Assembly (NCBI GenBank): GCA_039621445.1
Contig: CP154954.1
Location: forward strand, 47,285,847 to 47,349,846
Reading direction: 5' to 3'
From: Euglena gracilis
Taxonomy: Eukaryota
DNA length: 64,000 bases
A program made the position numbers and the translations under genes. This document shows positions 457-35,139 of the stretch, one piece after another. Under the pieces are notes generated by a model. The model made no database searches. It was not told where the DNA came from and was given only the letters and a program-made list of their open reading frames with translations. Every line of letters begins with the position of its first letter. Positions within the stretch are counted from its first letter, which is position 1.

Positions 457-466
457 TCCCCCTCCC
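457..466 (-). promoter_or_regulatory. Polypurine tract
   Basis: GGGAGGGGGA on the minus strand, abutting the 3' LTR. Confidence 0.85.
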
Positions 467-1344
467 AGGGCTACGCCCGATTTCTTTCATGGACCAGGGT
501 TTCCCAGTCCAGTCAGGATATCTGACGCCGCCCCAGGTGGGGTTCACTTCTCCATTCGGTGTCTCTCCTTTCCGCACAGTGGCATCCACCCAAAGCCCAA
601 AAACGCGCAAAAGGTTAGCCGCGTTTCGCGGTTACCTATTAGCCGTTTCGGCTTAGGTGGGGTATGAAAAAGCCCACTGTGGGAAACGGGGCTTGGCAGG
701 TTTCCTGACAAAGTGTCCCATCCACCCACTTTGGGTGTGCCAAAGGCATGCGGGGCTGGTCAAGCGATTCGCTGAAAACCCGAGGGGAGAGGTGTGGAAG
801 GGGGGGCAGGCTCTTATCCTGGTCATACCCGGATAAGGCTCCTAGGCGGTCATATCCGCACTAGGAAACAAAAGCCTACTTACAAAACCGACTGCCGGCG
901 ACAGCTTTGCGGGGGTGGGGGGAAAGTAGGGAGGAGAGGGGGGCTGGCTTAGGCCAGAACAGAATTTTTGCTGTCTGGCAGCCTTAAGGGCCTTAGGGCG
1001 GAAAAGTGACAAGTTGGCCTATTATTACGGCGTGCGCGCTGTGTGCTGTGCGTCACTTAGCGGTTTGCCAGGTTTCCCGGCTGCCAAGGTCTTCAAAGCA
1101 GTAGCTCCTTCACGACGCAATAAGAGGCGATTACCTCCCGCAGACGGTTTCCGTCCGCATGGTCACTGGTATAATGGGTTGACAGGGGGGGGGCTCTTGG
1201 ATGCTTCCATCCAGAGCGTTGAGGGACACAGACCCAGGTTCATCCCAGGGCTGTTTAGCGATTTCCGCTTCCAGTGTATATATATAGTGTATGAGCTCCA
1301 TGAAGGCGCTTACCTTACATGGGCTTGGTAATGCCGTTTCGGCA

Positions 1345-4300: not shown

Positions 4301-6788
4301 TCCAGGAAATATATATATACTTCCAGGACGTAGGTAATCCACGCCCTGTGCCAGTATTGTTGGAGCAGAAATATTTTCTGCCGGTGCTGTTTCAGCACCT
4401 TCCGGTCTTGCGTTCCGATCTGGGGTTTCCGGCACTGATGCAGGAGGAATCTCCTGGTCGGTGGGCTGCCGGCATTCTCGGCAGTCGGAGGCGGTTTTCC
4501 GCGCTCCCCGAAACCCCAGAAGTCAACAATGTGGACTTCCTTGCAAAACTGGCATTCCAGTTTGTATCGTTGAGGGTAGGCGAGGTCCACGTCCAGTACC
4601 TTGAACAGCATGCCGTACATGCTGTCCAAGAATACTTGGAGGTTGTTTGTGAACATTACCGCAGCCTGCGCCTGGAGTTTCTCCGGCAGGGGGTAATATT
4701 TCCACTGGATTCCCAGTGCGCTGACGGAATACATGTGGTTGAAGATTTCCTTCAACTGTGCTACGAACGTTTCATCGTCTTCACATGTGTTCAAACAATC
4801 GATGTATGTCAGACCGTTTCGGTCGGTGAAAATGCCAAAGTTCTGGCAGGGATATCCCAACCAGAACCAGAGTTCCCAGAAACCAGACATCTGGTCCAGG
4901 ACCATTTCATCCGAATGAGGGTATCCCTCAAACGCATGAAGTTCGGTACTGTAGATGAATCGTTTGCAGTGATCGTGCATACGATCCTGCACCAGTGCGA
5001 GCACCGCTTCCGGTGGTCGGTGGATCACGTTGCCAGCACGCGTGTACTTTTGGAGATCCTGGTCGATTTTCGGCCAGATTTCATCCAAGTAATCGAACAG
5101 CTGGTCAGCGTCGTAATCCTTCGTTTTCGAAGGTTCGGCGGCTTTTCCGCCTTTTCCTGCTGGGGGTCCGGCAGATTTTCCGCCTTTGCCTGGGGGTGGT
5201 CCAGCGGGTTTTCCGCCTTTTCCAGATGAGGCTTTCCCACCTTTCTCCTGGCCTTTACCTTTACCCTTACCCTTGCCTTTTCCTTTACCCTTGCCCTTCG
5301 TGTTGGACAGCCATTCTATTGTCGCCCGATATGGGTCCCAATATTCCCAGTATTCTGGGTCTTCTTCTGTATACACAGGATAAGTTACGGATTCCGTGCT
5401 TGGTGTTCGAGCAAATTCCTGCTCAGCATCACCACGATTCGAGTAAACCGGTGCGACTGGGGATGGTCGGGTTTCCCGACGTGCCCGTTCTGCCGTCACG
5501 TCGGGCGCTGGCGGAGCTTCCTCCTCAGCGTCGACGTGCATCGCCGCGGGCGGATTTTCCGACCTCGGCGAGCGGCGTTGTGGCTGCGGCGTCAGATTTT
5601 CCAGGCCGCGGTCACGTTTGCCGGCGGCAGAGCTTGTGGGTCGTGCTGGTGGCGCTTCCGCCACAGCCACGTCCCGCTGTCGCGCTGGTTGACTTAACCG
5701 TGATGGAGCTGGGACTCCTGTGAGAGCCGACACAGCAGCATCATACTGCTGGCGTTCTTCCCGTGTCATTTCCGCCCGGGCAGGGTATCCCTGGCCAGCG
5801 GAAACAGGGGGGCGACGTGCGATTTGTCGTTGGATCGTCACAGCATATTCATACTGTTGACGGTCCTCCTCAGTCTCGAACGGCCGACCAGTCCACGGGT
5901 TAACGGGTTCATCCCGTGCCGGGGGAACTGGTGCCGCACGAGGCGCTGCCGCGGCTTCCCGCGGACGAGCGCTTCGGGCAGAGTCAGACGTCGGGGGAGG
6001 ATTTCCCGCCGCAGGACGTCGTGGGATAGGGTCAGGTATAGTGGGGTGGGTGGATATGGATATATGTACTGATCCTGTGGCCTTGGCGCCTCCTGTGGGT
6101 ATTCCCCAGAGACGGTGTACTGAGACACATGCTCCTGCGCAGGATAATCCCGCCGGGGCGTGCGCTCAGGGGATCGAAAAATACTTTCTTTCACACGTGG
6201 GTGTTCACTCCGGACAGGTGCTTCCACTGTCTCTTCCTCGGGTAATCCGGGGGAGTGAGCACGAAAATGTGCAGTGTAAGTGCCAACGGGTGGTACCTGC
6301 CTTGCGACCTGTGGCGGGACTTCCACGCCCAGGTCACGCATGGTAATGTCTGCCGCGAATCCCGACGCGTCCGGGTCGGTGTAATACACCAGACCGGTCA
6401 TCGTCGCCTGGGCGCACATACACCACAGGGCTGGAGGGGTATTCGCGATGGTCAAAACTTTACGGCAGTGGTCATCCCACAATGCCTGTGTGAGTTGGTC
6501 TGGTGCCGGGTTTGCGCTCATACGCATAACCCGGTTCATCGTCTCCGCCGTGCGGTGGATCATCACACCCGCATACGGTGGGAGGCGACGAGAGCCTGAT
6601 GGCTGAGATGGCCGCGCTTCCGCGGGCATCTGGGTCATCCTGCTACTGCTGCTGGCTTCAGGGTTTCCCTGAGCCGCAGTCCGTGCAGGTGGCTGCGTAC
6701 CGTATCGGTATGCATACTGGTCAGGTTGAGGGTGAGTGGTGGGGTGGTAAGGCGGTCCTCCGCCTGAATCCCTTCCACCGGGCAGCAT
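1345..6788 (-). CDS. Extra ORF3 of element A, unknown function (~1,800 codons, one frameshift within about 5840-6070)
   Basis: ORFs 5838-6842 and 1345-5841 are both homologous to the single B ORF 23345-24952 and its downstream fragments. Both families start MLPG and share three conserved blocks separated by Pro/Glu-rich linkers. Confidence 0.85.
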
Positions 6789-6951
6789 GATACAGCCCGG
6801 GGTCGGTACGGTGGGATGTTTGGGTTGTTGGTTTGTTGTCAAGTGAAAGGGTAACTCCCTGGTGTTATTTGGTAAAAAGTCTGCGGAAAGAAAGAATGAT
6901 AAGAATCAATGATAAAAAGAAGAGAAAACAACATGGGTTTCCCATGCGTTC

Positions 6952-9900
6952 TCAAAAACTTGTCATGGAAACATCAATGTTATGTTTCTTGTTCCACAGC
7001 TTCCAATCTTGCTGGACATACCCAACAAAACTGGTTGCTGGCTCCCAAGTGTCCTCCTCGGGCCCATACCCTTTCCAGCGGACCTTCCAAAGGTGCATAC
7101 CTTTGTCGATTTTGTGATCGATAATTTTATCGACTACAAAGTCGTCCGTCTCAGGTAATCTGGAACGGGGTTTGAAGTGCAAACACGGGATGGGTTTCCC
7201 ATCCGGTGGCGACAGGTATGGTTTGAAGTCGTCCATATGAACGTCCTCAACACCATTCGGTAATGCAACCTTGTAACGCCCGCTGGTACCTAGTCTTTCT
7301 AGGATTTCACAGGGGCCGAGCCAGAGGGGGTCCAGCTTGGAAGACTGCATGCGAGTACGGCTATTCCGTACCCACACGCGGTCACCGGGACTGTAAACAG
7401 GTGACTTGAAATTCTGCAAAAACGATTTCCGTTTTGCTGCATGAATATCAGTCACGCGTTTCTGGACTGCAGAACGTAGATTTTCTACTTCCGCAAACCA
7501 GGTCTCGCAACTGACACTCGTTCGGGCGGGTCTCTCCGAAGGGACATCCCCTATGGCCGGAGGGTCCCGTCCGAAAACTAATTTATAGGGGGAGTGAGGT
7601 AAAACCAACCCTGGTAGGGTATTGATATAAAACAAAGACCATGGTAGAACTGATATCCAGTTGCTGCGCGAGTCAGCCAGTGAAAGGCGAAGCATATTCA
7701 CGACGGATTTCACGGCTGCCTCGGCTCTACCATTGCCTTTGGGTCGGTATATAATGGAAAAATGTTGCTCGATTCCGAGTAAACCGCACAAAGTGGTGAA
7801 AAACCTTGAAGAAATCAAATGGTCTTGATCACTCACGATTTCATTCGGTAAACCCATCAAGCAAATGCATTTCTCCAAAAATATAGTTGCCAAACTTTGG
7901 GCAGTCAACCCTGACTTCTGGCATGGAATGGCTACAATGTACCCACTCAGCCTGCAGACGACAACAAAAACGTAATCGTAAATTTTGTCGTCTGTTCCTT
8001 TGCACGGTTACAATTCCAAAAAATCCATGCAGAGGGATGTAAAAATGTCAGGGGGTACGGGGAAAAAGTCCATCGTACCAGGGGGGGTACCTCTGCGGGG
8101 TTTTACCGCTTGACAAATTTGACACCGTTGCGCTATTCGCAAACAGCGTGAGTAAAGCTCTTTCTCGCTCAGGGTTGTACAGTACCTGCGGCCCACCAAC
8201 GAAAGAAGTTTGGGGGCCCCAGGGTGACCATGGTTGTGATAACACAAAATCACATCATCAACCAGGTCCTGGGGGATACAATATTTGTAACCCGATTCAT
8301 TGCGAAAAACCAACCGTAAAGGTGAAAGAGTGTAATTGTCCAGCACTTCGCCATTACGAAGTCTGGTGACAATGGTGTCATACACCGGGTCACGACTATA
8401 ATCCCATTCGCGAAAGAACAGTGGGGAAGGGGACTCCGTGCGCGTAATACGCCGGGGCCCGGACGTGCTTCCACGTCGGCGCCTTCCTCGCACTGGTGCG
8501 ACCAGGAATAGTTGTGAAACGGGAAAAGAATCCAAAAGATTGTCCGCAGCGTCGGTTCGACGTGCGTATCCTGTGCGTATTCCTGACTTCCATGAAAAGT
8601 CGCGTCTCCCTCATCCGGGTTCCCAGGGTAATACCAAGGGGCCCGACTGAGCGGATCCGCTACTTTTTGTGTGTGTCCAGGGGTATAAATAACCACAAGG
8701 TTGAATTGACTCAAGAACTCATGCCATCTGCATCGCCTTCCGACCGATGACATGGCCTTGTTCAAATCCTCGGTGTACCAGTGTTGCAGACTCTCATGGT
8801 CGGTCTTGACGAGGATCTGGACGAGGGTGCTGGCTACCCAGCTTCGGAATTTCTGGAGTATAAGCACGATTGCGTAGGTTTCCTTCTCGCGTATACTCCA
8901 TTTGACTTGACCTTTTCCATCGTCGCCCTGTAACTTTCTGCTGAAGAAAGCCACAGGTCGGAGCTCATTCGCCGCATTATGCTGGCTAAGAACTCCGCCA
9001 ACAGCGTAATCGCTGCTGTCGACTTCCAACACGTATGGTTTGTACGGGTCCGCGATTTCGAGGACAACATTCTCCAAAAGCAAAGCCTTGATTTTCTCAA
9101 GGGCCTCGCGCATTTGGTCATCCCAAATGACTTTGGTGTTGTCAACAGCCCGGTTTTTGAGCTGTTTGGTGAGGGGCACCGCGATTTTCGCGAAGTCCTT
9201 CATATAAATCGCGTAGTATTGGGCTAATCCCAAAAATCCTTTGACGTGAGTAATCGTTTTGATTTCCTCAGGGGTCCATTTCTTAATAGCTTCGAGTTTA
9301 CTCGGAGCGGCTTTCCGCTGTCCATTGCTGAGGATGTGCCCGCAAAATTTTATACGTATCCGAAAAAAATTCATGTTCGCGCCTTTGGAGAAAGTCACAT
9401 GTTTTTGAAAAGCGGTTAATACCGCGCAAAAATGGTGGAAGTGTGTGACGAGGATATCCTGGCTCGATTTTGCGGACGGTGGTGGTGTTCCCACCAGCAC
9501 ATCATCAATGTACCCAATGGCAAACGGTAAATCGCGTTAAACCCATTGGATCATGCGTTGAAACATGGCTGGGCCATTCTCAACACCCACGGGGAGTACC
9601 GTCCATTGGTACACACCCTTGGATGTCACGAATGCCGTGTATGGTTGGGAGTCAGGGTGTAAGTGCATTTGGTGTGAAAACCGTCCTCCAGATCGAAAAT
9701 TGACCACACACGGTTTTCCGATTGTTTGGTGATCAAATCCTCGATCAGGGGGAGCGGAAAGGGATCATCCCTTGTTTGGGAGTTCAGGTACCGGTAATCC
9801 AGCACCAGCCTCCATTTCTTCTGACCTGAGGGGTCTGGGGGTTTAGGAACAAAACAAAATGCCTGGGATGTCCACTCGCTTTTCGAGGGACAAACCACTT

Positions 9901-12038
9901 GCGCTGAATAAGCTTCTCAATCATGTCATTGAGAGCTTGTTCGCGTTCTCCCGAACAACGATAAAATTTCCGTTGCATTGGTTGGGCGCCTTCCTGAAGC
10001 TGGATCTGACAAACACCAAACGGACCGCGTTTATTTTTTACCGGGGGTGGGGGGTGTCAGATAAGCCGAAATTGTCGTGCACACGGAGGTATACTGGATT
10101 TTCAAGCACAACGTGAAATCCGCGGGCATAACGCGAACAGAATTCGGCTGACTTAGGATGACCTGACTCTCGATGACTGCGGAAACACCAGGGTATATCT
10201 GGGGCTACCAAACTTCCTCAGCACCGCGAATTCGGACATTCCGAATGCATCGAAGAAACATACGCGAAAAATGATTTCTTGCACGGGTGGTAATATTTTA
10301 CCACAAAAATCCTCAAAAAATCGGTACATTAGTGGGTAAATCCCACCAATGAAAACACACATACGATAGTTGGGTGAACCATTCCGCTTCCGGAATGATG
10401 GGTATGAGAATAACTCCACGGGCTTCATCCCGCAGATTTTTCTCAACCGCACATTCGATAAGTTTTGGGGGAGGGTGCATCCATAACACCGTATCACCCC
10501 AAAATTTATCAAATGCGTTGGAGTGTTGTGACCAATGACGTGGCAAACGGGCATGTGCATTGGATGAGAAGGCATCGATTTCCAATGCCAAATCAAAAGA
10601 ATCAGCCAATGTCGCGATTTTGGAAAACCATCGTTCCAAAATGCGATATTGACCAAAATTGAAAGCATTCCATATGCGTTTCGCGTATTCATGCACCCGA
10701 TTTTCGGGTTGAAGGGTAGAAACACAATGAATGGATCCACAAACATGCGGGTTGTCTTCCACTACCACAAGGGTTAATCCCAAGGGAGTTTAGACAGGTT
10801 GGGGGTTTCCCCATTCCGCATCAAATCCGTACCAAGTGTGATCGCGATTGTAATTAGGAATGGCGCTTTTCGCGTTTCCAAACAACGAGGCTAATCCTCG
10901 TTGTTGGAGTACTCGGTGTATCTCCGCGCATTGCGGGCTACAACCAAGTGTATCATGGGGGGTGGATTCCGTTTTCGGAATTGCGATTAGTGTCGGATTT
11001 TGAACTAAACATCCACAATCGAAATCCGATTGGGTGGAAATTCTCCTGCAGTGCACACATTGGAAGGAAGTGTGATGGTGTGACGGGTGTGCGTGAAAGT
11101 GGGTGTCGATGGCATTAGCCGGGGAGTCTTGTACAGGTGTGCCTGGATTCGGCACAGCTGGTGGGAAACGGAGTGGTGGTGTGGCTGTGGCTCGACACCG
11201 TGATCACTGCAGGCCTTTGGGCTTTCGTCTTGTAACCCAGTGGAACGGCGGGGGTACCGCTACTCGCTTGCCCTGCCTCATGTGGAACGCATGTTGGTGT
11301 GTCATTGGGCAGGGGGGAGGCTTTCTCCGTACCCCGGGTGTGGAAAACGGTTGTTGGTGTGGTGGGTAACGGTGTTGCCATTGTGGGTAACGGTGTGGGC
11401 AAAGCGGTGGTCATCATAGTGGATGACAACGGTGATGGTGGTTTGGGTGTCAATGAAGTGGTGAGTGCTGTGCGCAAACCGTGGGAGTGGCAATCCACAA
11501 CCAATCGGTACTGGCGTAAAAATGGGTATCCCAAAATTACGTCAGACCCGTGAATTCCGGACTCGTAACCCCAAATATTGGTGAAATGTTGTAATTGTGG
11601 GGGTTGTGAGTGATGCTTCGGAATGATGGGCAAGAGTATCTCGAGCACACATCCCAAATCACCACCACACATGGGGGTGTTATCCGCGGTTGTAATTTTG
11701 ATCGGTTTCTTGGCGCTTACCAAGAGCGGGGTCGGTATCAACCCCAACCGAAAGAGCAGTGCAATGCGACAACCAGTGTCAATGAGAATTTTGACTTTGG
11801 TGGAGAAATTTTGAATGCGGATTTCCGCTTGGACGAGTAATTCCATTGGTGGTACGCAAAGTGAAGGGTCTGGCGGAAATACGTTTGCATGCCAGCTCTC
11901 CCATGAACCCTTTCCTACTTTGCTCAGCATTCCGAGCGGAAATGTGGAGTGGGGGGTAGGGGACCCGAAATAATTCCGGGTACTGACCGTGAAGGCGGAT
12001 GGGCAGGGGGGGTAAGGTTGATCAGGTCTTACCTCCAT
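6952..12038 (-). pseudogene. pol: Pol of element A (PR, Dam-like MTase, RT, RNase H, integrase, chromodomain), frameshifted
   Basis: Fragments: ILIDTG protease (11115-12038), IDAFSS...WMHPPP (10313-10783), RT KWRLVLDYRYLN, RH VLEVDSSDYAVGGVL, HHCC plus D-D-E integrase, and chromodomain WKVRWKGYGPEEDTWEP. Colinear with the near-intact B pol. Confidence 0.92.
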
Positions 12039-12083
12039 CTGTTCATCAGCCCAGAGGTCCGTGCCCTCGGACCTCGGGCTCCC

Positions 12084-15000
12084 CTACTCCAAGTCCGAAC
12101 CGGCCGCATAGCCGGCAACGGACTTTTGGTGGAATAGATGGAATTCAATGAGCGCACCGCCATTCGGGCCTCATTAAATTCCCCGTCCGAGGTCTCATCC
12201 CCCTCCCTGCCCGAAGCCGGGGTGTCCTCCTCCAAACAAGATATCTTGAAACCGACCTTTTGCCGGTTGGAGGAGTAACCACGGTCATCGCGGCGCTTAC
12301 CGCGATTTCCGTAGCCGGGCCGGGGGGAACGAGATCTGGGACATTTGGATGCGTGGTGATCTTTGGAACCGCAAAGTGAACAACGGGATTTGTGGCGGGA
12401 TTCCGCATAACGGGGGGAACGGTATTCCGTTTTTCCGTCAAACCGTCGTGGTGAACGGGTTTCCCGTCGACCATGACCGGTGTATCGGGACTTCCCCGTT
12501 GACTCGCGTGAAGAGGATGATCCACTTCGCGAACGAGATCGTGAAGAATCGCGATTGAAATCCCGTTTTCGTGCAGGAGGGCCAGGTGACCGACCGCGAG
12601 AAGGACGGGTTTCCCGACCATCACGCGATGGTGACTTGGGCCTACTACCGCTAAAGCGGTTCTCCGAAGACCGTGAAACTCCCGATTGACGTGAAAACGC
12701 CGAGGAACCCGATCCCCGTGAGGAGGTCGAGCCCCTTGGGCTTCCAATACGCTTTCGCGCATCGGGATTCGGGCATTCCCGAGACATGTGACCAGATTTG
12801 TTGCAAAAAAAGCACAGTTTATCCGTGCCCTGGTCCGAAGAACGCTGATTCCGCGTTTTCGGTCCCGTGGTGGGTGATCTTGGTGACATGGGTGATTTTT
12901 GCAACGCATTAACCGCACCCGCAGGGATTCCCGCGGTGGGATGCGTTTGGAAAGCGGACTGTATTTGTCCCAAAACTTGTGTGAGCTTGAGTTGCTTTGA
13001 CACATAATTCCAACGTTGGGCAAGAGTCATCTCATGCCCTGCCAACTCCTCGCGATGGATATCCTTCACGAGGGATGGTGTGAAATGCAACAAAACCGCA
13101 TCGAATTGTTCGCGCATTTGCTTCTCGCTAAGTTCATCAACTTCGGAAGCAAGTGCTAACCATTTGGCATACCAAAGGTCAATGGATTTCCATTTGCGAT
13201 CCGATGGCGCGCGTTGTCGCCACTTCTTCTCCAGGGTAATCCTGGTGACCAGACTTGAATTGGTTGAAGCGTATTGCTCAACCAGGTCATCGAATGATAC
13301 GCCATTACGTATCACCAAATTGCGTGCGCGTTCTCGCTCCTCCCTCGGTAGGCAATCGATGAATTCCATCTTGACTACCTCGGGATTCGGGTCTTGGGTG
13401 GGTCCCTTTAGTGCCCAATAGTACTCCCAGTCCCGAAAAAATTGTCTCCATGTGGTTGGATCCCCGTCCCATTGAGGCTTCACCTTGTTCGCGATTGCGA
13501 TGGTGCCCTTGAAGTCTCTCTGAGTAACCCGCTGACCCTCGGTGGTATTCCAGGGGTTTGGGTCAGGGTAATTCTTAACACCAAACGCGTTTCGCGGATT
13601 TTCCGCTCCATGTGTAACCCGTGCAGGATTTCCCGCACCAAGTGTAAGGTTGGCAGGATTTTCCTGCGGGAATTGCGAAAAATGTGGTGAAATCCTCTCA
13701 GTGGGGCGGGTTTCCCGCCGAAAACCCGATGGGTGGTCTGGCATTCCAGAACCCGTCGGTTGTTGGTATGATCGCGATTGCGACACATGACCAATACCAG
13801 GTGTGGGGTGTTGGCTCATTCCTCGCACAAGGTTGGAATGTTGAATTTCTTGGTGGAGACTCGAATTTTCGAGTGGGGGGTCAATTTCCTCATCGGAAAT
13901 GTCGTGCGAAGAGTGAGTTTGTGGTGTTGGCAAATGCAAAGGTGGTACAATTCGCGTTTTCGCGGGTGGTTGTACCAAATTCGCGGTGGATGTAGGGATT
14001 CCTACTCCGGAAAAGGTAATTTGAGAACGCGATTCCGGGACATTTGGAATACCAACCGCAGCGCTTACCGCGGTAGGTGGTGGCACAACCGGTACCGGAG
14101 GGTACATTTTATCCAAACTCGCGGACAAGTCATGCACCGTTTCTTCCAAATGTTCCACCAACTGGAGTTGGCCGCAAATACGGTCAACCTCAGTCTCCAA
14201 ATGCCTAATGCGTTTGCGGTAACGGGAAAAATCTTCCAAGTGTGGCAACTTTTCAGAAACCAAGTGTAATTCTTGGGCAAGATTTCCTTGGGACTCCTCC
14301 ACATTCCGGAGTTGACCCGCAAGCGCTTTTACCGCATTTGAGACGGTTTGCAATTGGTGGAGTGACTTGGTGGGGGTTTCCACGGTGGTGCGCGAATTTT
14401 CCGCGGTTGGTTTTTCCAACAACGCAGAAATTCGTCCATCCAACCGAGAAACCTCATCTTGCATGGATCGGGCATTCCGATTCACGCTTTCCTCAATTTG
14501 GAGCAAACTTGTACAAAATGCTTGCAAGGTTTCCTTGTTGTCACCAAGCACTTTGTCATAAAATGAGCGAAATTCCGGTGACTCGGATATCCGAGCACGC
14601 GAAATGGGGGGTAGTGAGCGGATTTCCGTCACTGTGGTGGACAACAAGGTGCAACGGGTTTGTAATTCCCCAATAGCGGCTTGAATACCACTAATGTCGG
14701 GAATTCGCTTGGAAAGTGCAGAAACATGCTCCTGCAAACCGACAACGGTGGCATTAATACCGCCAATGTCCGTTTGCATTTGTTGTTGCGTAAAATCCAA
14801 CCGTTGTGCGCAATCCGCGATTTTCGCGTTCAAGGTGGTTAATCCATCCTGATTTGCGGCACAATGGCAGGATTTTTGCTCCAAGTGTGAAATTCGTTCC
14901 TCCAAAAGCTGGATTTGCGTACGGGGAACAAAATTTTCTTGCACTTTCGCCTGAAATTGCTTCAAGTGCTCGATTTCCGAGCCAAGATGCAAAATCCGTT

Positions 15001-15976
15001 GTTGGGCTTCTTGGAAAGAAGTGGTAAGTGCGGCAAAATGCTCAACCGCGACAAAGTTACCGATTTCCGGCATTTTGGGGGTGGCATTTTGCGCTTGTAA
15101 CTGCTGCTGCAATTGCAGTAGCATGGTTGAACAGGATTCCAATTGGGCAAAAAGATGGCTCATACCATCCTGCACATGCAGAAACTTGGAATCATTCCGC
15201 GTTTCCGCTTCATGCAGCATTTCGCTGATTTGTTGGAAATTTTGTGGAAGTTGGATGCGCAAAATACTGTCAACACTTTCTCGAAAATGCTGAAGGTCTT
15301 TCCCCGCATTTTCAAAATTGTGTTGGCAATATTTGCCGATTTCCTGCAAATAATTCCAGCAACATTCCAGTTTGGTGTTGACAACCCTTTGATTGTCCTC
15401 ATCAAACTGCAAAACTTTGTTGAGCATGGTTGCGCATTCCGCAACGCATTGGTGGACATGCAAAATTTGCTTGCTAAGCGGGTGATCCGCTGGGAGTTGA
15501 CCGAGAATTCGGTAAACATCACCGGGGGTGAGGTTATCCCTCAAATCTTCCTCATAGTCCTCCACAATGGAAACGGCACCAGACACTTCCGCCCACCTCA
15601 GCCCCATCTCTGGGTTCCATGGCAATGCAGGGAAAACCGCAGCTTCCGCGGGTAATCCCGGCAAAGCGTGAAATGGTGTGGGGGGTGGTAATTGAGGGGG
15701 GGGTTGGAAAAAACACGGTGTTTCCACCGAGTTGCACTCCAAAAGGCCCACCGGTGCTTCCACCGGGGATCTTTTGGGTGTGAACAGAGCAAAGGGCAAA
15801 TACCCCTCACTTTGTTCATGGGTAACATGAGTAACCAAGTGTGAGGGTGCAAGGGGTTCATCCCCTCGCCGCATCAATGATGGGTGAATCGGGATGGAGG
15901 AAGGCATTTTGCCACCTACATCCCGCACAATCAATGACAATGATGATGAAGAGGGTTCATTACCCCCATGCAACAT
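12084..15976 (-). CDS. gag: Gag-like polyprotein of element A (~1,300 aa)
   Basis: Long coiled-coil-like N-terminal region, capsid-like PQWDGDPTTWRQFFRDWEYY, two CCHC knuckles (CFFCNKSGHMSREC, CSLCGSKDHHASKC) and an RS-rich region. A 1-nt deletion just before the conserved TAG (12084-12086) shifts the ORF-track end to 12029. Confidence 0.9.
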
Positions 15977-16402
15977 AAAGGCGTTTCGCCTTTTGACAAT
16001 GACAAATGAGTCAAATTGCCTTCTTCTTGCTTGGGGGGTCGGGAATTGGAACTTGTTTCATTCAAACCGTTCCAATCCCCGCAATCTTCATCACAATTGC
16101 TCAATGAACTCATCAACAAGTCATAATCAAATTTGGGGTTGGGGCTTGTGCTCTGCATCTTTTGAGATGGGTAAAAAGGCAAAAACCCAAAAATTCACAC
16201 AAATAAGCAGAGAAACAGGGACCAGAAAGGTTGTATCGGCGATTACCGAACAGAGCCTTCTGAGACCTGTATCCTTGCTTAAAGGTTGGCTAGGGGCCAG
16301 GAACAGTACTTTCACCGTGTTTCACGGCTCAGTACGATCCTCACCACCAGTCAACCACAGAGTTTCTCTGTGTGGAACGTCTGTGTAGGATCGTTGCCTA
16401 AA

Positions 16403-16412
16403 TCTGCTACCA
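16403..16412 (-). promoter_or_regulatory. Primer-binding site, initiator tRNA-Met type
   Basis: TGGTAGCAGA immediately 3' of the 5' LTR, complementary to the ...UCUGCUACCA 3' end of many eukaryotic initiator tRNAs. Confidence 0.8.
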
Positions 16413-16840
16413 AGTGTACGTCCAAAGCTTTCCCTTTTCCCCTTTTTGGAACTTTCTGTAAAAGCCTTTCGCTTTCGCCTTGGTGCGCAGCCTACTTATG
16501 GTAGGGAAAAGTCTTTGGAGTAACGAAAAGTGGTTTTCCCCTTTTCTTCCCAATTCCCCAAGAAGCAAAGCACAAAGCAAAGATTCAGAAGTTTCTTCTG
16601 AGATCAAAGTCGATTGTTCTGAGGGTTTTTCCCTCTGACAAAACCAATGGTGAAACTTGGAAGTGATGACAGTAAAGAATACCACCTGTGGGGGAAGGAG
16701 AGAAAAGTGCTGACGTGTCCAGGGGCAGATCCCAGAAGGGTCTGCCACGATCTTACCAGCTGTGGGTTTCCACAGTGGTGCGACCGTCACAGAACCCACT
16801 CTGCACATATCCTACAGAGCTGGGGCGTGCCTGGTACACA
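16413..16840 (-). repeat. 5' LTR of element A
   Basis: Begins TGTGTAC on the minus strand and ends GTACACT. Directly followed by the PBS. Confidence 0.96.
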
Positions 16841-17722
16841 CAGATTCAATCCGCGTATACCGCACACCCAACCGCTGGATTACCGGCTGGTTCGGTGAAC
16901 GCATTGCAAAAATCACCGGTTTCACCCGCTTCACCCACCACGGGATCGAAAACGCGATACCCGCGTTCTTCGGACCAAGCCACGGATAAAGTGTGCTTTT
17001 TGTGCAACAAATCCGGACATATGTCTCGGGAATGTCCTAATCCTGAAGCGCGTAAGCGTATTCAGAGTCCGCGAGGCTCGACGTCATCACGTGGTTCGGG
17101 TTCCTCCGCGTTTTCACGCCAATCGGGCAATTCAAGGTCGTCGGGTCCCCGTTCCGGTGGTATTAGCCCCCGGATCCCGTTCCGCGATGAGCGGAAACAC
17201 GGTACCCCTCGGGGTAGGTCACCCGGTGCCCCGGCCAAGAAGCGTGATTCTCATCGCGAGGCATCGCGATCGCGTTCGCGAAGCGGATCATCCTCTTCGC
17301 GATCCTCATCGGGAAAACCCCGATACACCGGTCATGGTCGACGGGATACCCGGTCACCACGACGGTTTGACGGGAAATCGGGAAACCGATCCCCCCATTA
17401 TCCAGATTCGCGACACAAATCTCGGTGTTCGCTTTGTGGATCGAGTGATCACCACTCATCCAAATGTCCGCGTTCTCGTTCTCCCCGCCCTGGCCAACGT
17501 CATCGCGGTATGAATCGCGGTGACAAGGGTCACTCCTCCAACCGCCATAAAGTCGGTTTCAAGATATCTTGTTTGGAGGATGACACCCCGGCTTCGGGCA
17601 GGGAGGGGGATGAGACCACGGATACCGATTTCGACGAGGCCCGCATGGCGGTGCGCACGTTGAAATCCGTTTACACCTCTAAAAGGCCCATAGCCGGCTA
17701 TTCGGCCGGTTCGGACCTGGAG

Positions 17723-17761
17723 TAGGGGAGCCCGAGGTCCGAGGGCACGGACCTCTGGGCT
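17723..17761 (+). promoter_or_regulatory. Putative gag-pol stop-codon readthrough signal (UAG plus stem-loop)
   Basis: TAG GGG AGCCC-GAGGTCCG-AGGGCA-CGGACCTC-T-GGGCT, with pol in frame. Identical on the minus strand at 12048-12086 and 30240-30278. Confidence 0.75.
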
Positions 17762-18265
17762 GATGAACAGATGGAGGTAGGACCTGATCAACCCTGCCCC
17801 CCCTGCCCATCTGCCTTCCTGGTCGGTACCCGGAAAATTTTCGGGTCCCCCACCCCCCACTCCAACTTTCCGCTCGGAATGTTGTGCAAAGTAGGAAAGG
17901 GTTCATGGGAAAGCTGGCAAGAAAACGTATTTTCGCCAGACCCTTCACTTTGCCTACCACCCATGGAACTTTTGGTCCAAGCGGAAATCAAAATGCAAAA
18001 TTTTTGTACAAAAGTCAAATTCTCATTGACACTGGTTGTCGCATTGCACTACTTTTTCGGTTTGGGTTGACGCCAACCCCCCTCTTGGTGAAAACCAAGA
18101 TGCCAATCAATACTACGACAGCTGACAACACCCCCATGTGTGGTGGTGACTTGGGATTTCGGGCATTGTCCTCCCCGTCATCCCAAACACCCACACAACC
18201 CCTCCAAACGCAAAATTTTCTGGATTCCTGGGGATTTGAATCCGGAATCCATGGTTCTGACGTAA

Positions 18266-18273
18266 TTTTTTTT

Positions 18274-18321
<48 letters not shown>

Positions 18322-18325
18322 TTTT

Positions 18326-18406
<81 letters not shown>
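18266..18406. repeat. ~140-nt poly-T tract
   Basis: Direct inspection. Absent from the minus-strand B copy. Confidence 0.95.
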
Positions 18407-18408
<2 letters not shown>

Positions 18409-19458
18409 GTCAGCACCGGCTGGTGGTGGAAGGCCACTCCCACGGTTTGCTCACATCACCCTCCTCCTCATTGCCCCCCAAACCCTCATCACCTGTGGCG
18501 TCAACCGCGATAGCCACCAATTTTTCCACACCGTTTTCGAAAACTTTTACCCCGTTACCAACCACACCAACCAACGTTTTCCACACCGGGTGTACCGAGA
18601 AAGTTCACCCCCTGCCCATTGACACACCAACTTCCGTTCCCCATGAGGCAGGGCAAGCGAGTAGCGGTACCCCCCTCGTTCCACTGGGTTACAAGACGAA
18701 AGCCCAAAGACCTGAAGTAATTACGGTGTCGAGTAGTCGTCCAGCTGCACTAATACCCCGTTTTCCACCAGATGTATCGCTTTCAGATACATCTGTACAC
18801 CCCCCAGCAGCTACAAAAGCGCATCCCAACTTTTACACACCCCCCCACCAGACCAACATGCGCGACCAGGACCACTACTCCGACACTTCCTTCCAATGTG
18901 TGCACTGTAGGAGAATTTCCGCCCAGCCAGATTTCGATTGTGGATGTTTAGTCCAAACACCAACACTAATCCCAATTTCGCGCACCCATACACTTGGTTG
19001 CGGATCGCAATGCGCGACCGTACATCAAGTCAAACCTGGGCAGGGCGCATGGCCAGTCAAACCTGACCACGCAAAAGGAAATCCTACTCTACAAAACCAA
19101 CTGCCGGCGACAGCATTTGACACGGGGGGAAAGTAGAGAGGCGTGGGTTGTTCGCTTAGGCCAGAAAAATGGTGCTGTCTGGCAGCCTTAAGGCCTCAAA
19201 CGGCCGAAAAGAAAAGAAAGGGAAAGGAAAAGAGGCCGTCGGCCCTGTGCGCTGCGTGTCGCACGCCCGCGAGAGGGGAGAGGGGTGTGCATGCATGCGC
19301 ACGGAATCCTGCACATGGCAGCATCCCGGTTGGAACTTACTAGCGGCGAATACCGCAAAGGACTTCAAAGGGGCTGTTCGGGCGAATACCCAAACAGGAT
19401 GTCAGGCGAATACCTGACGAGGGTGCTGAAAGACGCCGCATTGGCGCTGACAGACACC

Positions 19459-25147: not shown

Positions 25148-28100
25148 TTAGACAGTGTTTATGTTTATGTCTATGTTATTGCGCTTGTTGCACAGCTTCC
25201 AATCCTGTTGGACATATCCAACAAAACTGGATGCTGGCTCCCAAGTGTCCTCCTCTGGCCCATACCCATTCCAGCGAACTTTCCAGTAGTGCTCACCCCT
25301 GTCGACCTTGTGGTCTATTATCTTATCGCCCACAAAGTCGTCCGTTTCAGGTAATCTGGAACGGGGCTTGAAATATAGGCAGGGGATAGCTTTTCCGTCT
25401 GGGGGGCTTAGGTACGGTTTGAAGTCGTCCATATGGACGTCCTCAATCCCGTTGGGCAAGGCAACTTTATATCGCCCGCTACTACCTAACCTCTCCAAAA
25501 TTTCGCATGGGCCGAGCAAAAGAGGATCTAGCTTGGAAGATTGCATGCGGGTGCGGTTATTCCGTACCCACACGCGGTCACCTGGACTATACACAGGTGT
25601 GTTGAAGTTCTGCAAAAACGATGTCCGTTTGTTGGAATGAATTTCTGTGATACGTGATTGGACTGCAGAGCGGAGTGATTCCACGTCTGCAAACCACGTT
25701 TCACAGCTGACGCTACTTCGGGCGGATCTCTCCGAGGAGATATCCCCTATGGCCGGAGGGTCAGGTCCGAAAACAATTTTGTATGGTGAGTGTGGTAATA
25801 CCAACCCTGGCAAGGTATTGATGTAAAATAAACACCAATGAAGAACGGATAACCAATTCTTACCCGAGTCCGCCAGTGAAAGGCGAAGCATATTGACAAC
25901 GGATTTCACGGCTGCCTCGGCTCTACCATTGCCTTTCGGGCGGTATATAATGGAAAAATGCTGCTCAATGCCGAGTAAACCGCACAAAGTTGTGAAAAAC
26001 CGCGAAGAGATCAAGTGATCTTGATCACTCACGATTTCGTTCGGTAAACCCATTAAGCAGATGCATTTCTCCAGGAATATGGATGCCAAAATTTGGGCTG
26101 TCAACCCTGCTTTCCGGCATGGAATGGCTACTATGTACCCACTCAGCCGACAGACGACAACAAAAACGTAATCGTAAATTTGGTCATCTGATCCTTTGCA
26201 AGGTTCAAGTTCGAGAAAATCCATGCAGAGGGACGTAAAAATGTCTGGTGGTACGGGGAAAACGTCCATCGTACCAGGGGGGGTACCTCTGCGCGGTTTC
26301 ACAGCCTGACAAATTTGGCACCGTTGCGAAATTCGCAAACAGCGCGAATATAAATCTTTTTCACTCAGGGTTGTGCAATATCTGCGACCCACTAGTGAAA
26401 GAAGTTTGGGGGCCCCAGGGTGACCATGGTTGTGATAGCTCAAAATCACATCATCAACCAGGTCTTGGGGTATACAATATTTATAACCAGAATCATTCCG
26501 GAAAATAAGCCGCAATGGTGATAGAGAATAATTCTCTATGGATTCACCATTACGAAGTCTATTCACAATGGTACTATATACCGGGTCACGCGAATAATCC
26601 CATTCGCGGAAAAATAGGGGGGTAGGAGTTTCCGTACGCGTAATGCGACGGGGTCCGGCAGTGCGTCCACGCCGGCGCCTTCCACGCAATGGTGAAATGG
26701 CAATGCTGCGATACACCCGGCAAACGGGTAGTGAATCGAGCATGTTGTCCGCAGCGTCGGATCGACGTGCGAACTGGCCAGCCTCATGGCTGCCATGAAA
26801 AGTCGCATCACCCTCATCCGGGTTCCCAGGATAATACCAGGGGGCTCGGCTGAGAGGATCCGCAACTTTTTGCGTATGACCTGGGGTATAAACTACCACC
26901 AGGTTAAACTGGCTCAAGAACTCATGCCATCGGCATCTTCTGCCAACTGATGACATGGCCTTGTTCAGGTCCTCGGTATACCAGTGTTGAAGGCTTTCAT
27001 GATCCGTCAACACTAGTATCTGGACCAAGCTGCTGGCTATCCAGCTGCGGAACTTCTGGAGAATTAGCACAATGGCATATGTCTCCTTTTCGCGAATGCT
27101 CCATTTAACCTGTCCTTTCCCGCTGTCGCCCTGTAGCTTCCTGCTGAAGAAAGCCACAGGTCGGAGTTCATTCGCCGCATTATGCTGGCTAAGAACCCCG
27201 CCAACAGCGTAATCGCTGCTGTCGACCTCCAGGACATACGGTTTGTATGGATCCGCGATATCGAGAACCACGTTCTCGAGGAGCAAGTCCTTGATTTTAT
27301 TCAAGGCCTCGCACATTTGGTCATCCCAAATGACTTTTGCGTTATCGGGTGTCCGATTTTTGAGTTGTCGGGTTAGGGGTACCGCGATTTTCGCGAAATC
27401 TTTCATGTAAATCGCGTAATATTGGGCTAATCCCAAAAATCCTTTTAAATGCGTTAAGGTCTTAATGACCTCAGGAGTCCATTTCTTAATGGCCTCCATC
27501 TTACTGGGTGCGGCTTTACGCTGCCCGTTGCTCAGGATGTGTCCGCAAAACTTAATAATTTTGCGAAACAGGTGCATTTTGGAACCCTTCACAAAAAGCA
27601 CATGCTTTTGGAACGCGGATAATACCGCGCGCACATCGCGATAATGCGGGTCGAGGATATCCTCGCCCGATTTCGCGGATGGCGGTTGGGTTCCCACCAG
27701 TACATCATCGATGTACACCAGAGCAAACGGTAAATCGCGCAAAACCCACTGGATCATGCGTTGAAACATGGCTGGGCCATTCTTAACACCCATGGGGAGT
27801 ACCGTCCATTGGTACACACCCTTGGATGTCACGAATGCCGTGTACGGTTGCGAATCAGGATGCAAATGCATCTGATGGAAACCGTCTTCCAGATCAAAGA
27901 TTGACCACAACCGGTTATCCGATTGTTTTGTGATCAAATCCTCGATCAGCGGTAACGGGAAGGGGTCATCCTTCGTTTGGGAGTTCAGGTACCGGTAATC
28001 CAGCACCAGTCTCCACTTCTTCTGACCAGACTGGTCAGCGGGTTTGGGCACCACAAAAGCTTGTGATGTCCACTCGCTCTTGGAAGGGATAATCCACTTC

Positions 28101-30230
28101 CGCTGGATGAGCTTCTCAATCATCTCGTTGAGAGCCTGTTCGCGTTCACCCGAGCAACGGAAGAATTTCCGGTGCATAGGTTTAGCGCCATCCTTGAGCT
28201 CGATTTTGCAAACACCGAACGGACCGCGAATCGCGGGGTCGATGTCGCAGGCGTAAACTGGGTTATCCAGTACACCATGGAATTCGCGAGCAATTCGCGA
28301 ACAATAATCAGCAGACTTGGGATGTTGGTCCGCACTCTCAATGACCGCAGAAATCTGCGTTGAGGGTGTGGCATCCCCATCCGTACCAAGGTATCTTGGC
28401 ACACGCAAATCGGATATTCCGAATGCGTCGAAGAAACAAACGCGAAAAATGATTTCTTTGACAGGTGGTAATAATATACCACAAAAATCCTCAAATAGTG
28501 GTACATCAGCGGGTAAATCCCACCAATGAAAACACACATAGGATAGTTGGTGAAACCAATCCGCATTCGGATTGACCGGTATGAGGAGAGCTCCTCGCGC
28601 TTCATCGCGGAGGATTTTCTCCACCACATCCGGGATAAGTTTTGGGGGAGGGTGCATCCATAGCACCGTATCACCCCAAAATTTAAGGAATGCGTTGGTA
28701 TGTCGCGACCAATATCGCGACAAGCGCGCATGCGCTTTTGATGAGAACGCATCAATTTCCAACGGCAAATCGAAGGAATCAGCCAAAGCCGCGATTTTGG
28801 AGAACCATTCCTCCAAAATACGGTATTGACCAAAATTAAATGCGTTCCATACGCGCATCGCGTAGGTGTCGACCTGGTTCGCGGGTTGAAGAGCGGTAAC
28901 GCAATTCAGGGATCCGGAAACATAGGTCAAGGGTGTGTCATCCACACTCCCAAGGGGCATTCCCAAGGGTTGATGGGTTGGATGGGTGCATACCCAGTCC
29001 ATATCATGCCAGATGGAGGTGGGGGAGGTGTGTGACACGGATTTCGCGGTCCCAAACAACAAGGCAATACCTCGTTGTTGGAGCACTTGATGTACGGTCG
29101 CGCATTGCGATCCGCAACCAAGTGTATGGGTGCGCGAAATCGGGATTAGTGTTGGTGTTTGGACTAAACATCCACAATCGAAATCTGGCTGGGCGGAAAT
29201 TCTCCTACAGTGCACACATTGGAAGGAAGTGTCGGAGTAGTGGTCCTGGTCGCGCATGTTGGTCTGGTGGGGGTGTGTGTAAAAGTTGGGATGCGCTTTT
29301 GTAGCTGCTGGGGGGTGTACAGATGTATCTGAAAGCGATACATCTGGTGGAAAACGGGGTATTAGTGCAGCTGGGCGACTACTCGACACCGTAATTACTT
29401 CAGGCCTTTGGGCTTTCGTCTTGTAACCCAGTGGAACGAGGGGGGTACCGCTACTCGCTTGCCCTGCCTCATGGGGAACGGAAGTTGGTGTGTCAATGGG
29501 CAGGGGGTGAACTTTCTCGGTACACCCGGTGTGGAAAACGTTGGTTGGTGTGGTTGGTAACGGGGTAAAAGTTTTCGAAAACGGTGTGGAAAAATTGGTG
29601 GCTATCGCGGTTGACGCCACAGGTGATGAGGGTTTGGGGGGCAATGAGGAGAATGGTGATGTGCGCAAACCGTGGGAGTGGCAATCCACTACCAGCCGGT
29701 GCTGACGTAAAAAGGGGTATCCCAGAATTACGTCAGAACCATGGATTCCGGATTCATATCCCCAGGTATCCGGAAAATTTTGCGGTTGGGGGGGGGGTGT
29801 GAGTGGTGCTTGGGGATGAGGGGTAGGACAATGTCCAAAAAGCATCCCAAGTCACCACCGCACATGGGGTGTTGTCAGCCGTCGTAATTTTGATCGGCTT
29901 CTTGGCTTTCACCAAGAGGGGGGTTGGTATCAACCCGAACCGAAAAAGTAGTGCAATGCGACAACCAGTGTCAATGAGAATTTTGACTTTTGTACAAAAA
30001 TTTTGGATTTTGATTTCCGCTTGGACCAAAAGTTCCATGGGGGGTAAGCAAAGTGAAGGGTCTGGCGAAAATACGTTTTCTTGCCAGCTTTCCCATGAAC
30101 CCTTTCCTACTTTGCACAACATTCCGAGCGGAAAGTTGGAGTGGGGGGTGGGGGACCCGAAAATTTTCCGGGTATCGACCGGGAAGGCAGATGGGCAGGG
30201 GGAGCAGGGTTGATCAGGTCCTACCTCCAT
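25148..30230 (-). CDS. pol: Pol of family B: protease, Dam-like MTase, RT (YIDD), RNase H, integrase, chromodomain
   Basis: ORF 29754-30230 (DTG protease) plus 1565-aa ORF 25148-29845, separated by one frameshift. LPMGVKNGPAMFQ and YIDD in RT; integrase CMDF, VSDQ, GRAE; chromodomain at the C-terminus. Confidence 0.95.
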
Positions 30231-30275
30231 CTGTTCATCAGCCCAGAGGTCCGTGCCCTCGGACCTCGGGCTCCC

Positions 30276-31856
30276 CTACTCCAGGTCCGAACCGGCCGAA
30301 TAGCCGGCTATGGGCCTTTTAGAGGTGTAAACGGATTTCAACGTGCGCACCGCCATGCGGGCCTCGTCGAAATCGGTATCCGTGGTCTCATCCCCCTCCC
30401 TGCCCGAAGCCGGGGTGTCATCCTCCAAACAAGATATCTTGAAACCGACTTTATGGCGGTTGGAGGAGTGACCCTTGTCACCGCGATTCATACCGCGATG
30501 ACGTTGGCCAGGGCGGGGAGAACGAGAACGCGGACATTTGGATGAGTGGTGATCACTCGATCCACAAAGCGAACACCGAGATTTGTGTCGCGAATCTGGA
30601 TAACGGGGGGATCGGTTTCCCGATTTCCCGTCAAACCGTCGTGGTGACCGGGTATCCCGTCGACCATGACCGGTGTATCGGGGTTTTCCCGATGAGGATC
30701 GCGAAGAAGATGATCCGCTTCGCGAACGCGATCGCGATGTCTCGCGATGAGAATCACGCTTCTTGGCCGGGGCACCGGGTGACCTACCCCGAGGGGTACC
30801 GTGTTTCCGCTCATCGCGGAACGGGATCCGGGGGCTAATACCACCGGAACGGGGACCCGATGACCGTGAATTGCCCGATTGGCGTGAAAACGCGGAGGAA
30901 CCCGAACCTCGTGATGAGGTCGAGCCTCGCGGACTCTGAATACGCTTTCGCGCTTCAGGATTAGGACATTCCCGAGACATATGTCCCGATTTGTTGCACA
31001 AAAAGCACACTTTATCCGTGGCTTGGTCCGAAGAACGCGGGTATCGCGTTTTCGATCCCGTGGTGGGTGAAGCGGGTGAAACCGGTGATTTTTGCAATGC
31101 GTTCACCGAACCAGCCGGTAATCCAGCGGTTGGGTGTGCGGTATACGCGGATTGAATCTGACCAAGAAGCTGTGATAGCTTCAGTTGCTTGGAAACATAA
31201 TTCCAGCGTTGGTCAAGAGTCATTGCATTACCCGCCAACTCCTCACGATGGATATCCTTGATGAGGCTAGGCGTGAAATGCATGAGAACAGCGTCAAACT
31301 GTTCGCGCATTTGCTTTTCACTGAGTTCATCCACTTCAGCGGCAAGTCCTAACCATTTGGCATACCAAAGGTCAATGGACTTCCATTTGCGATCGGGTGG
31401 GGCGCATTGCCGCCACTTGGTCTCCAGGGTAATCCTAGCGACCAAACTTGAACTGGTGGAAGCGTATTGCTCCACCAGGTCATCAAAGGAAACGCGGTAG
31501 CGAATGACGAGTTGTCGCGCGCGCTCCTTCTCATCCCTAGGGAGGCAATCGATGAATTCCATCTTGATCACCTCCGGGTTTGTGTCCTGGGTTGGCCCTT
31601 TCAATGCCCAGTAGTACTCCCAGTCCCGGAAAAACTGTCTCCATGTGGTTGGATCACCATCCCATTGGGGTTTCACCTTATTCGCGATTGCGATGGTGCC
31701 CTTGAAGTCTTTCTGAAAAACCCGTTGGCCCTCGGTGGTATTCCGTGGATTCGGGCCCGGGTACGCTCGAGCACCAAGCGTATCCTTTCCGGATTCTTGT
31801 CGGAATCGCGAAATTTCTGGTGAAGGTGAATCCTGGTACCGGAAATCCGGTCGCAA
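30276..31856 (-). CDS. gag: Gag of family B (5'-truncated)
   Basis: 526-aa ORF closely similar to the C-terminal part of element A Gag, with two CCHC knuckles. Ends GSDLE-TAG. Confidence 0.9.
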   Translation of the reverse strand: MRPDFRYQDSPSPEISRFRQESGKDTLGARAYPGPNPRNTTEGQRVFQKDFKGTIAIANKVKPQWDGDPTTWRQFFRDWEYYWALKGPTQDTNPEVIKMEFIDCLPRDEKERARQLVIRYRVSFDDLVEQYASTSSSLVARITLETKWRQCAPPDRKWKSIDLWYAKWLGLAAEVDELSEKQMREQFDAVLMHFTPSLIKDIHREELAGNAMTLDQRWNYVSKQLKLSQLLGQIQSAYTAHPTAGLPAGSVNALQKSPVSPASPTTGSKTRYPRSSDQATDKVCFLCNKSGHMSRECPNPEARKRIQSPRGSTSSRGSGSSAFSRQSGNSRSSGPRSGGISPRIPFRDERKHGTPRGRSPGAPAKKRDSHRETSRSRSRSGSSSSRSSSGKPRYTGHGRRDTRSPRRFDGKSGNRSPRYPDSRHKSRCSLCGSSDHHSSKCPRSRSPRPGQRHRGMNRGDKGHSSNRHKVGFKISCLEDDTPASGREGDETTDTDFDEARMAVRTLKSVYTSKRPIAGYSAGSDLE

Positions 31857-31914
31857 ACCCTGTTGGTCACCGTTAATAGGATAAGGCTAAGGTTAAGTAT
31901 ATATAAGTATATGT

Positions 31915-35121: not shown

Positions 35122-35139
35122 TAACCACCCCCAATATTT

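Follow-up and report, generated by a model that had tools for sequence, protein, structure and literature searches.

Here we report the analysis of a gag-pol junction in a 64,000-nt stretch of Euglena gracilis DNA (contig CP154954.1, positions 47,285,847 to 47,349,846 of the forward strand), referred to below as the window and numbered from its first letter. Self-comparison and tblastn found exactly three related copies of one kind of element in the window, here named A, B and C, and their sequence features mark all three loci as copies of a Ty3/gypsy chromovirus-type long terminal repeat (LTR) retrotransposon. Copy B occupies ~25148-31886 on the minus strand, and copy C, truncated and 97-98% identical to B, lies at 16841-19030 on the plus strand. 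Copy A, also on the minus strand, is homologous to B over 6988-13570 with 80.2% identity in 6,689 aligned columns, and the three copies represent two lineages (A versus B/C, ~80% nucleotide identity). At the boundary between Gag and Pol each copy carries a TAG codon followed by G and by a stable RNA hairpin (Table 1). We regard programmed UAG-G readthrough stimulated by 3' RNA structure as the best reading of this arrangement, and hold it with moderate confidence.

The junction of copy C reads ...GAC CTG GAG TAG GGG AGC CCG AGG TCC GAG GGC ACG GAC CTC TGG GCT GAT..., and the frame beyond the TAG translates as GSPRSEGTDLWADEQMEV.... In copies B and C, Gag continues into Pol in one frame through this single TAG; the earlier note on this DNA, which had Gag ending in GAG TAG and pol continuing in frame, was correct, and the post-stop frame leads into a retropepsin-fold protease. 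The TAG-GGG context is present in all three copies. A 39-mer running from the TAG to GGGCT occurs three times with no mismatch, at 17723-17761 (+), 12048-12086 (-) and 30240-30278 (-), where no occurrence is expected by chance. The earlier claims that stop and hairpin are identical in three copies, and that neighbouring codons differ between A and B, are borne out as well, but the copies count as two lineages, not three. Gag terminates in TAG-G, and both Pol and a third open reading frame (ORF) terminate in TAA. TAG also ends other long frames in the window; the long frames, with more than 3,700 codons, hold no further in-frame TAG, and the window contains no tRNA gene and hence no suppressor tRNA gene. 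Pol has no conserved start codon. The sixth codon after the TAG is GAG, which is not a near-cognate start, in all three copies, and the in-frame ATG at 17771, which lies inside an invariant block, corresponds to T, C, H, S, R or W in relatives.

Folding of 17729-17762 with ViennaRNA reproduces the 13-bp stem with loop AGGGCA that the earlier note had placed 3 nt after the stop. In this hairpin (HP1), AGCCC and GAGGUCCG pair with CGGACCUC, a bulged U and GGGCU, giving 5 bp, the bulge, 8 bp and the loop, with the first pair 3 nt past the stop. HP1 has a folding energy of -24.7 kcal/mol (z -4.61), and none of 200 dinucleotide shuffles was as stable; the upper 8-bp helix, which starts 8 nt past the stop, accounts for -15.0 kcal/mol when folded alone. 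In a 34-nt scan of both strands, -24.7 kcal/mol was reached by 36 of 63,968 windows, clustered at the three copies and at some four further loci on each strand, and because such windows are rare, a hairpin of this stability near a given stop is not a chance occurrence in sequence of 52.7% G+C. As a separate observation, four 34-nt windows fold more stably (-26 to -31 kcal/mol), at 34579-34612, 36991-37024, 37121-37154 and 39365-39398.

Directly after HP1, a second hairpin (HP2) folds in all three copies. From the stop to the end of HP2 (alignment columns 7-95) only four columns vary, all in the top 6-bp helix of HP2, and pairing survives all four changes (G-C to A-U, U.G to U-A, G-C to G.U), which amount in the three sequences to one compensatory and two one-sided changes. 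When all triple transitions were enumerated, 39% kept every HP2 pair, falling to ~4% when all three hits were required to lie in paired positions; retention of pairing in HP2 is suggestive only. RNAalifold applied to 17718-17811 offers an alternative in which the stop region (UGG.GUAGGGG) pairs with the conserved CCCCUGCCCA ~80 nt downstream, enclosing HP1 and replacing the lower part of HP2. The earlier note had further proposed that the loop AGGGCA forms a pseudoknot with a downstream TGCCC, and this is not supported: the partner at 17795-17799 in copy C is TGCTC in B and TTACC in A, and the TGCCC common to all three copies (17804-17808) lies within the 3' strand of HP2. No Rfam readthrough element was found; near the junction there were only six sub-threshold miRNA or snoRNA chance matches, and no match in the whole window reached a gathering score.

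Nucleotide conservation between the two lineages, which are ~20% diverged, is highest at the stop codon and its 3' flank. A 62-nt block that includes 5 nt ahead of the TAG and 54 nt beyond it is the longest exact A-B run in the 6,689 columns, followed by a run of 51 nt in the reverse transcriptase (RT) core and two of 41 nt. Counted in codons, the longest identical run between A and B among 2,182 codons is again at the junction (20 codons), the next longest being 17 codons (RT core) and 13 codons (protease active site). For 18 degenerate codons to show no synonymous change, P is ~6.5e-4 at the 66.5% unchanged rate of amino-acid-identical degenerate codons. The peptide encoded by the block lies in a region with a predicted local distance difference test score (pLDDT) below 50, so no folded domain explains the conservation.

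The position of the stop was followed into more distant proteins by an exhaustive HMMER search with a query of Gag, X and 173 aa, which gave 186 proteins, 150 of them listed; word-index protein searches with residues 440-680 around the junction had found nothing at near or longer lengths. The relatives are metagenome ORFs of 34-79% identity. Among the matches listed, at least seven Gag-like proteins align to query residue 534-536 at their own C-terminus. The motif ...(A)DYxxx[ST]D[LFHN][ED] forms the C-terminal end in 9 of 13 Gag-like sequences examined (P0007-P0010, P0012, P0013, P0028, P0049 and P0104, spanning the same range of identity); the other four end nearby with different tails, and none of the 13 runs on into protease. 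On the Pol side, 17 ORFs start exactly 6 codons past the stop (12 of 15, 1 of 4 and 4 of 20 in three sets) with M, V or L followed by GTD[LP]WA[DE], and two more start 8 codons past it. ORF callers begin at the first start-type codon after a stop, and these boundaries place a stop at or just before the junction in many diverged relatives. None of the 30 RT relatives that are at least 50% identical lists a Gag or CCHC domain; the closest are metagenome ORFs, and named matches (plants, Chara, Nannochloris) are at most ~33% identical. Only two of the 150 matches listed, P0031 and P0083, cross the stop position. P0031, a short and degenerate-looking ORF, has W at the stop position and G (a Gly codon) after it, where the codon for W may be TGG or, under table 4, TGA; P0083 resembles copy A but is read in a shifted frame, and its residues are compatible with the hairpin bases of the window. 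By these ORF boundaries the stop position is a family trait, and its retention in distant relatives excludes a private nonsense mutation. Among the outcomes that the earlier note had named as refuting readthrough are pol made from the ATG at 17771, which relatives do not keep, and a sense codon in most copies, where we find TAG in all three window copies and the stop position kept in relatives.

The Pol frame matches the Pfam families RVT_1, RT_RNaseH, Integrase_H2C2, rve, SH3-like and Chromo, two of them below cut-off (rve at 31.9 against 32.6 bits, SH3-like at 27.9 against 30). Neither Pfam nor a PDB sequence profile recognised a protease in the post-stop ORF. Its AlphaFold model has a confident core at residues ~80-205 (pLDDT ~80-97), for which the best Foldseek matches in PDB are the proteases of human T-cell leukaemia virus type 1, Rous sarcoma virus and human immunodeficiency virus (TM 0.60-0.65, probability 1.00), with Ddi1 retropepsin domains matched as well. 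The predicted model confirms that Pol begins with a retropepsin-fold protease, separated from the UAG by a linker of ~75 aa that is predicted to be unstructured. Between protease and RT lies a weak DAM-like match to PF05869 (E 2.4e-4), which at 21.2 bits does not reach the cut-off of 28.1 bits; a precomputed PF05869 assignment is present in many close relatives, some of which have a dUTPase or a C5 methylase domain as well. By profile, Gag is matched to the nucleocapsid knuckles of retroviruses (E 1.5e-6) and weakly to the Gag of Copia and Ty3. From these domain matches the layout in one frame is Gag with two CCHC knuckles, UAG, linker, protease, the DAM-like region, RT, RNase H, integrase and chromodomain. 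The chromovirus features found are the order protease-RT-RNase H-integrase with a C-terminal chromodomain and, in copy A, LTRs, a primer-binding-site-like word, a purine tract and a 5-bp flanking repeat. The family appears to match the chromodomain-bearing DAM-LTR or EpiLTR elements (preprint 10.64898/2026.05.21.726589), with a DAM score that in the window is only sub-cut-off.

If programmed readthrough operates at this junction, most ribosomes would stop at the UAG and make Gag, and a small fraction would decode the UAG with a near-cognate tRNA to make a Gag-Pol fusion, so that the readthrough fraction would set the Gag:Pol ratio, as in murine leukaemia virus (MuLV). With the UAG in the A site, the lower 5-bp helix of HP1 (AGCCC/GGGCU) should already be open, and the G+C-rich 8-bp upper helix would then stand at the mRNA channel entrance, with a spacing of 8 nt to the stop. 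With a plain stem-loop, or two in tandem, in place of a pseudoknot, the signal would come closer to the 'extended 3' structure' class of readthrough. UAG-G with a 3' structure constitutes type III readthrough, for which the MuLV spacer is 8 nt, and plain stem-loops also stimulate (PMC3159437).

The junction resembles that of MuLV in having gag and pol in one frame split by UAG-G with a stable 3' structure, in the presumed purpose of a low Gag-Pol:Gag ratio (PMC3159437, PMC2194720) and, once the lower helix is opened, in an 8-bp helix 8 nt past the stop (PMC3159437). It differs in that MuLV requires a compact H-type pseudoknot, whereas only hairpins are supported here; in that the full stem begins 3 nt past the stop rather than 8 nt, with no Rfam match; and in that the present element is a Ty3/gypsy chromovirus, not a retrovirus. 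Of the 'gammaretrovirus-style' signal that the earlier note had described, the in-frame UAG-G before Pol, its place in the most conserved stretch and the family-wide stop hold, and the pseudoknot does not. Among cellular and viral stem-loop signals (alphaviruses, coltivirus, plant viruses, Drosophila kelch) the likeness lies in raised synonymous-site conservation and a plain stem-loop, and the SEPN1 stem is close to HP1 in size (16 bp, one bulge, 5-nt loop, 6-nt spacer) (PMC3159437). Those signals are mostly UGA-C with stems spanning 100-200 nt (PMC3159437), whereas here a UAG-G is followed at 3 nt by a compact 33-nt hairpin and then by a second hairpin of 50 nt. Raised synonymous-site conservation 3' of the stop, the class criterion of Firth et al. 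2011, is seen here between the two lineages.

Gypsy elements usually frameshift or use one ORF, and SIRE1 is among the retroelements with an in-frame gag-pol stop. The former generalisation, which the earlier note had given as established, is true, but in-frame stops are known in chromoviruses (PMC10085805, PMC4600332). Tj1, Tosmo1-3 and Tcry1, fission yeast elements of the Tf1/sushi branch, have TGA-CT stops, and Tj1 transposition is lost without the stop (PMC10085805, PMC4600332). Like the present family they are chromoviruses with one in-frame stop and no Pol ATG; their junctions share a conserved 8-nt GAA-TGA-CT, with no 3' structure described in the available parts of these papers, in contrast to GAG-TAG-GG with hairpins here. 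The Ty1/copia element Tca2 of Candida albicans has an in-frame stop, an 8-nt purine-rich spacer and a potential structure that its authors considered MuLV-like; it differs in its UGA, in its pseudoknot, in being copia-type and in a junction that held a minor promoter (PMC2194720).

Several points weigh against readthrough at this junction. The case is built from anatomy and conservation, that is, by inference and not by experiment, and the comparison at the DNA level comprises two independent lineages only. All three copies carry frame breaks and none is intact, so no copy is demonstrably active. The look-alike junction of Tca2 failed to direct readthrough in Saccharomyces cerevisiae reporters (PMC2194720), and for this reason anatomy alone does not prove readthrough.

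Some further points on this side also speak for a rival explanation, in which the stop is bypassed by readthrough that needs the immediate UAG-G context alone, or trans factors, with the hairpins serving another RNA function (for example packaging or dimerisation, stability or a pause for Gag folding) or reflecting constraint on the Gag-protease linker peptide; this explanation seems to us unlikely, although it is the strongest of the rivals. All 13 pairs of HP1 are invariant, so there is no covariation in this stem. The covariation check that the earlier note had suggested, run on the three window copies, returned the one compensatory pair of HP2, which is not significant (163 of 500 shuffles match it). 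A wider sample of relatives' DNA was sought by comparing the Pol N-terminal alignment with genome contigs (168 pattern matches, no relatives) and with a degenerate junction pattern (no matches). HP1 begins nearer to the stop than the structures of MuLV (8 nt) or SEPN1 (6 nt), an atypically short spacer by the examples in PMC3159437. Relatives also keep the encoded peptide GTD[LP]WA[DE][DE], and some of the nucleotide conservation may therefore reflect protein constraint; a protein-constrained Gag block, 'DTPASGREGDET', is nearly as conserved, with 59 of 60 bases identical. Against hairpins that serve other ends stand the centring of the longest identical block of the element on the stop, the location of the block peptide in a predicted disordered stretch, the stability of HP1 far beyond that of its shuffles, and the spacing of the upper helix, 8 nt, at which structure is known to work for MuLV (PMC3159437).

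We consider it less probable still that Pol is made unfused to Gag, through re-initiation after the UAG, an internal start (ATG 17771 or the M, V or L of relatives) or a subgenomic transcript whose promoter lies in the junction. The many relatives with M, V or L six codons past the stop, 17 ORFs in all, count against readthrough here, because independent initiation of Pol is possible in them; the position of ATG 17771 within the invariant block and the minor promoter of the Tca2 junction (PMC2194720) point the same way. No start is conserved, however, with GAG at the sixth codon in the window and ATG 17771 replaced in relatives, and the database ORF starts are simply the first start-type codon that an ORF caller meets after the stop. 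Fusion to Gag is, moreover, the usual route of Pol into retroelement particles. The stop arrangement of Tj1 works as in type C retroviruses (PMC4600332).

Readthrough could also be arranged conditionally, as a ribosome-actuated RNA switch, to which we give little credence. In the free RNA the stop would pair with CCCCUGCCCA, and a ribosome at the UAG would open this helix; the freed UGCCC could then pair with GGGCA of the HP1 loop, forming a transient MuLV-like pseudoknot only while the stop is in the A site. If this were true, a chromovirus family of protists or algae would have evolved a gammaretrovirus-type stimulator on its own, in a conditional version.

Removal or skipping of the stop in RNA by splicing or editing is very improbable: the block ends in GAG followed by GTA(A/G)GA, which resembles a 5' splice site (GTAAGA or GTAGGA at the 3' edge of the invariant block), and the copia Gag:Pol ratio is set by splicing (PMC2194720), but this candidate donor lies 3' of the stop and splicing at it cannot remove the stop, no conserved donor-like word is present just upstream, and conservation begins only 5 nt before the TAG. 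That the TAG is an inactivating mutation common to dead copies, or a sense or suppressed codon in the host, is close to refuted, for all the damage in the three copies and the W of P0031, by the 9 Gag ends and 19 Pol starts at the stop in relatives of 34-79% identity, by the lack of any other in-frame TAG in more than 3,700 codons while TAG ends other long frames, and by the absence of a suppressor tRNA gene from the window.

Mouse leukaemia virus and some yeast elements are known to use readthrough between gag and pol. No prior description of the present junction signal was found in the literature on readthrough in retrotransposons and chromoviruses or on DAM retrotransposons, the recoding survey of Gao et al. 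2003 lying outside this search, and the available main text of the DAM-LTR preprint (10.64898/2026.05.21.726589) contains no mention of stop codon, readthrough, frameshift, gag or in-frame. If correct, programmed readthrough here would place a UAG-G and hairpin signal among the small number of LTR retrotransposons for which stop-codon readthrough is known or suspected, in a lineage, the chromoviruses with a DAM-like region, whose gag-pol expression is undiscussed in the available text of the one DAM-LTR paper found. It would also extend MuLV-like readthrough geometry beyond the retroviruses of vertebrates. For annotation, it would follow that ORF callers split these elements at the stop, as public protein sets show with 9 Gag ends and 19 Pol starts. 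The junction would moreover provide a natural cassette of ~90 nt for testing the effect of a plain bulged hairpin near the stop on termination.

Table 1. Coordinates of the junction features and of the three element copies in the window
Feature	Position	Strand	Remarks
Gag stop TAG, copy C	17723..17725	+	followed by G (UAG-G); sequence reading, 39-mer search
Gag stop TAG, copy B	30276..30278	-	39-mer search
TAG, copy A	12084..12086	-	in frame with the downstream 322-aa protease ORF; out of frame with A Gag as sequenced
Block of 62 nt identical in A and B/C (TGGAG TAG ... GGAGGTA)	17718..17779 (copy C)	+	longest exact run
HP1, copy C	17729..17761	+	13 bp; 5' arm 17729-17741, loop AGGGCA 17742-17747
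HP1 3' arm, copy C	17748-17761	+	bulged T at 17756
HP2, copy C	17762..17811	+	~15 bp with internal loops; directly abuts HP1; contains both TGCCC words
HP1 and HP2, copy B	30190..30272	-	HP1 30240-30272, HP2 30190-30239; folding of aligned copies
HP1 and HP2, copy A	11998..12080	-	HP1 12048-12080, HP2 11998-12047; folding of aligned copies
Gag fragment, copy C	16841..17722	+	C-terminal 294 aa; cut at 16841 by the element A insertion
Post-stop Pol fragment, copy C	17726..19030	+	linker, protease region; several frame breaks
Gag frame, copy B	30279..31886	-	536 aa stop-to-stop; two CCHC knuckles
Pol, copy B	25151..30275	-	linker, protease, DAM-like region, RT, RNase H, integrase, chromodomain
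DAM-like region (P0001 residues 354-434)	~28550-28790	-	weak PF05869 match
Element A	30..16840	-	complete 16.8-kb LTR retrotransposon; order Gag, TAG, Pol, third ORF

Insertions of the chromovirus are nested in this region, as element A lies in the Gag of copy C and copy B adjoins its Pol near 19040-19080. The LTRs of element A, 428 bp each at 30-456 and 16413-16840, are 98.4% identical. Adjoining the 5' LTR at 16403-16412 is the primer-binding-site-like word TGGTAGCAGA, which would fit initiator tRNA-Met at its 3' end; ahead of the 3' LTR lies a purine tract, and the element is flanked by a 5-bp repeat, ATCTG. No LTR pair was found for copy B.

In copy A, a 1-nt length difference in an A-run at 12124, 38 nt upstream of the TAG, lets Gag as sequenced pass the TAG out of frame and end at the TAA at 12029-12031, and its Pol contains further breaks. 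In copy B the length of a C-run in the protease, near 29870, differs by 1 nt from that in C, where the run is longer; the Pol of B stays in the Gag frame for 173 codons, up to this break, and the remaining 1567-aa frame ends in TAA-A. Frame breaks are several in copy C. The breaks of A and B nearest to the junction, both in homopolymer runs, may be genuine mutations or errors of long-read assembly. The protease region of copy C is interrupted at 18266-18406 by a T-rich repeat expansion.

The Gag frame of A has an N-terminal extension of ~830 aa at 13570-16057 (-), rich in coiled-coil-like sequence, which B is without; the relatives P0007, P0010 and P0014 (1077-1199 aa) have similar long N-terminal parts. 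The third large ORF lies downstream of pol at 1345-6165 (-) in A (1606 aa) and at 19459-22293 (-) and 23345-25036 (-) in B, and no Pfam family was found in the ORF of A. It is 37% identical between A and B overall, with a Cys-rich C-terminal part of ~400 aa that is better conserved and a low-complexity remainder that diverges much faster than gag and pol.

Short low-complexity tandem or inverted repeat arrays are common to distant sites of the window, at 18266-18406, 35133-35250, 52076-52160 and 55080-55360. At 53289-54035 (+), a partial-domain match to the LOG or 'possible lysine decarboxylase' family (PF03641, E 9e-12) may represent a host-gene exon.

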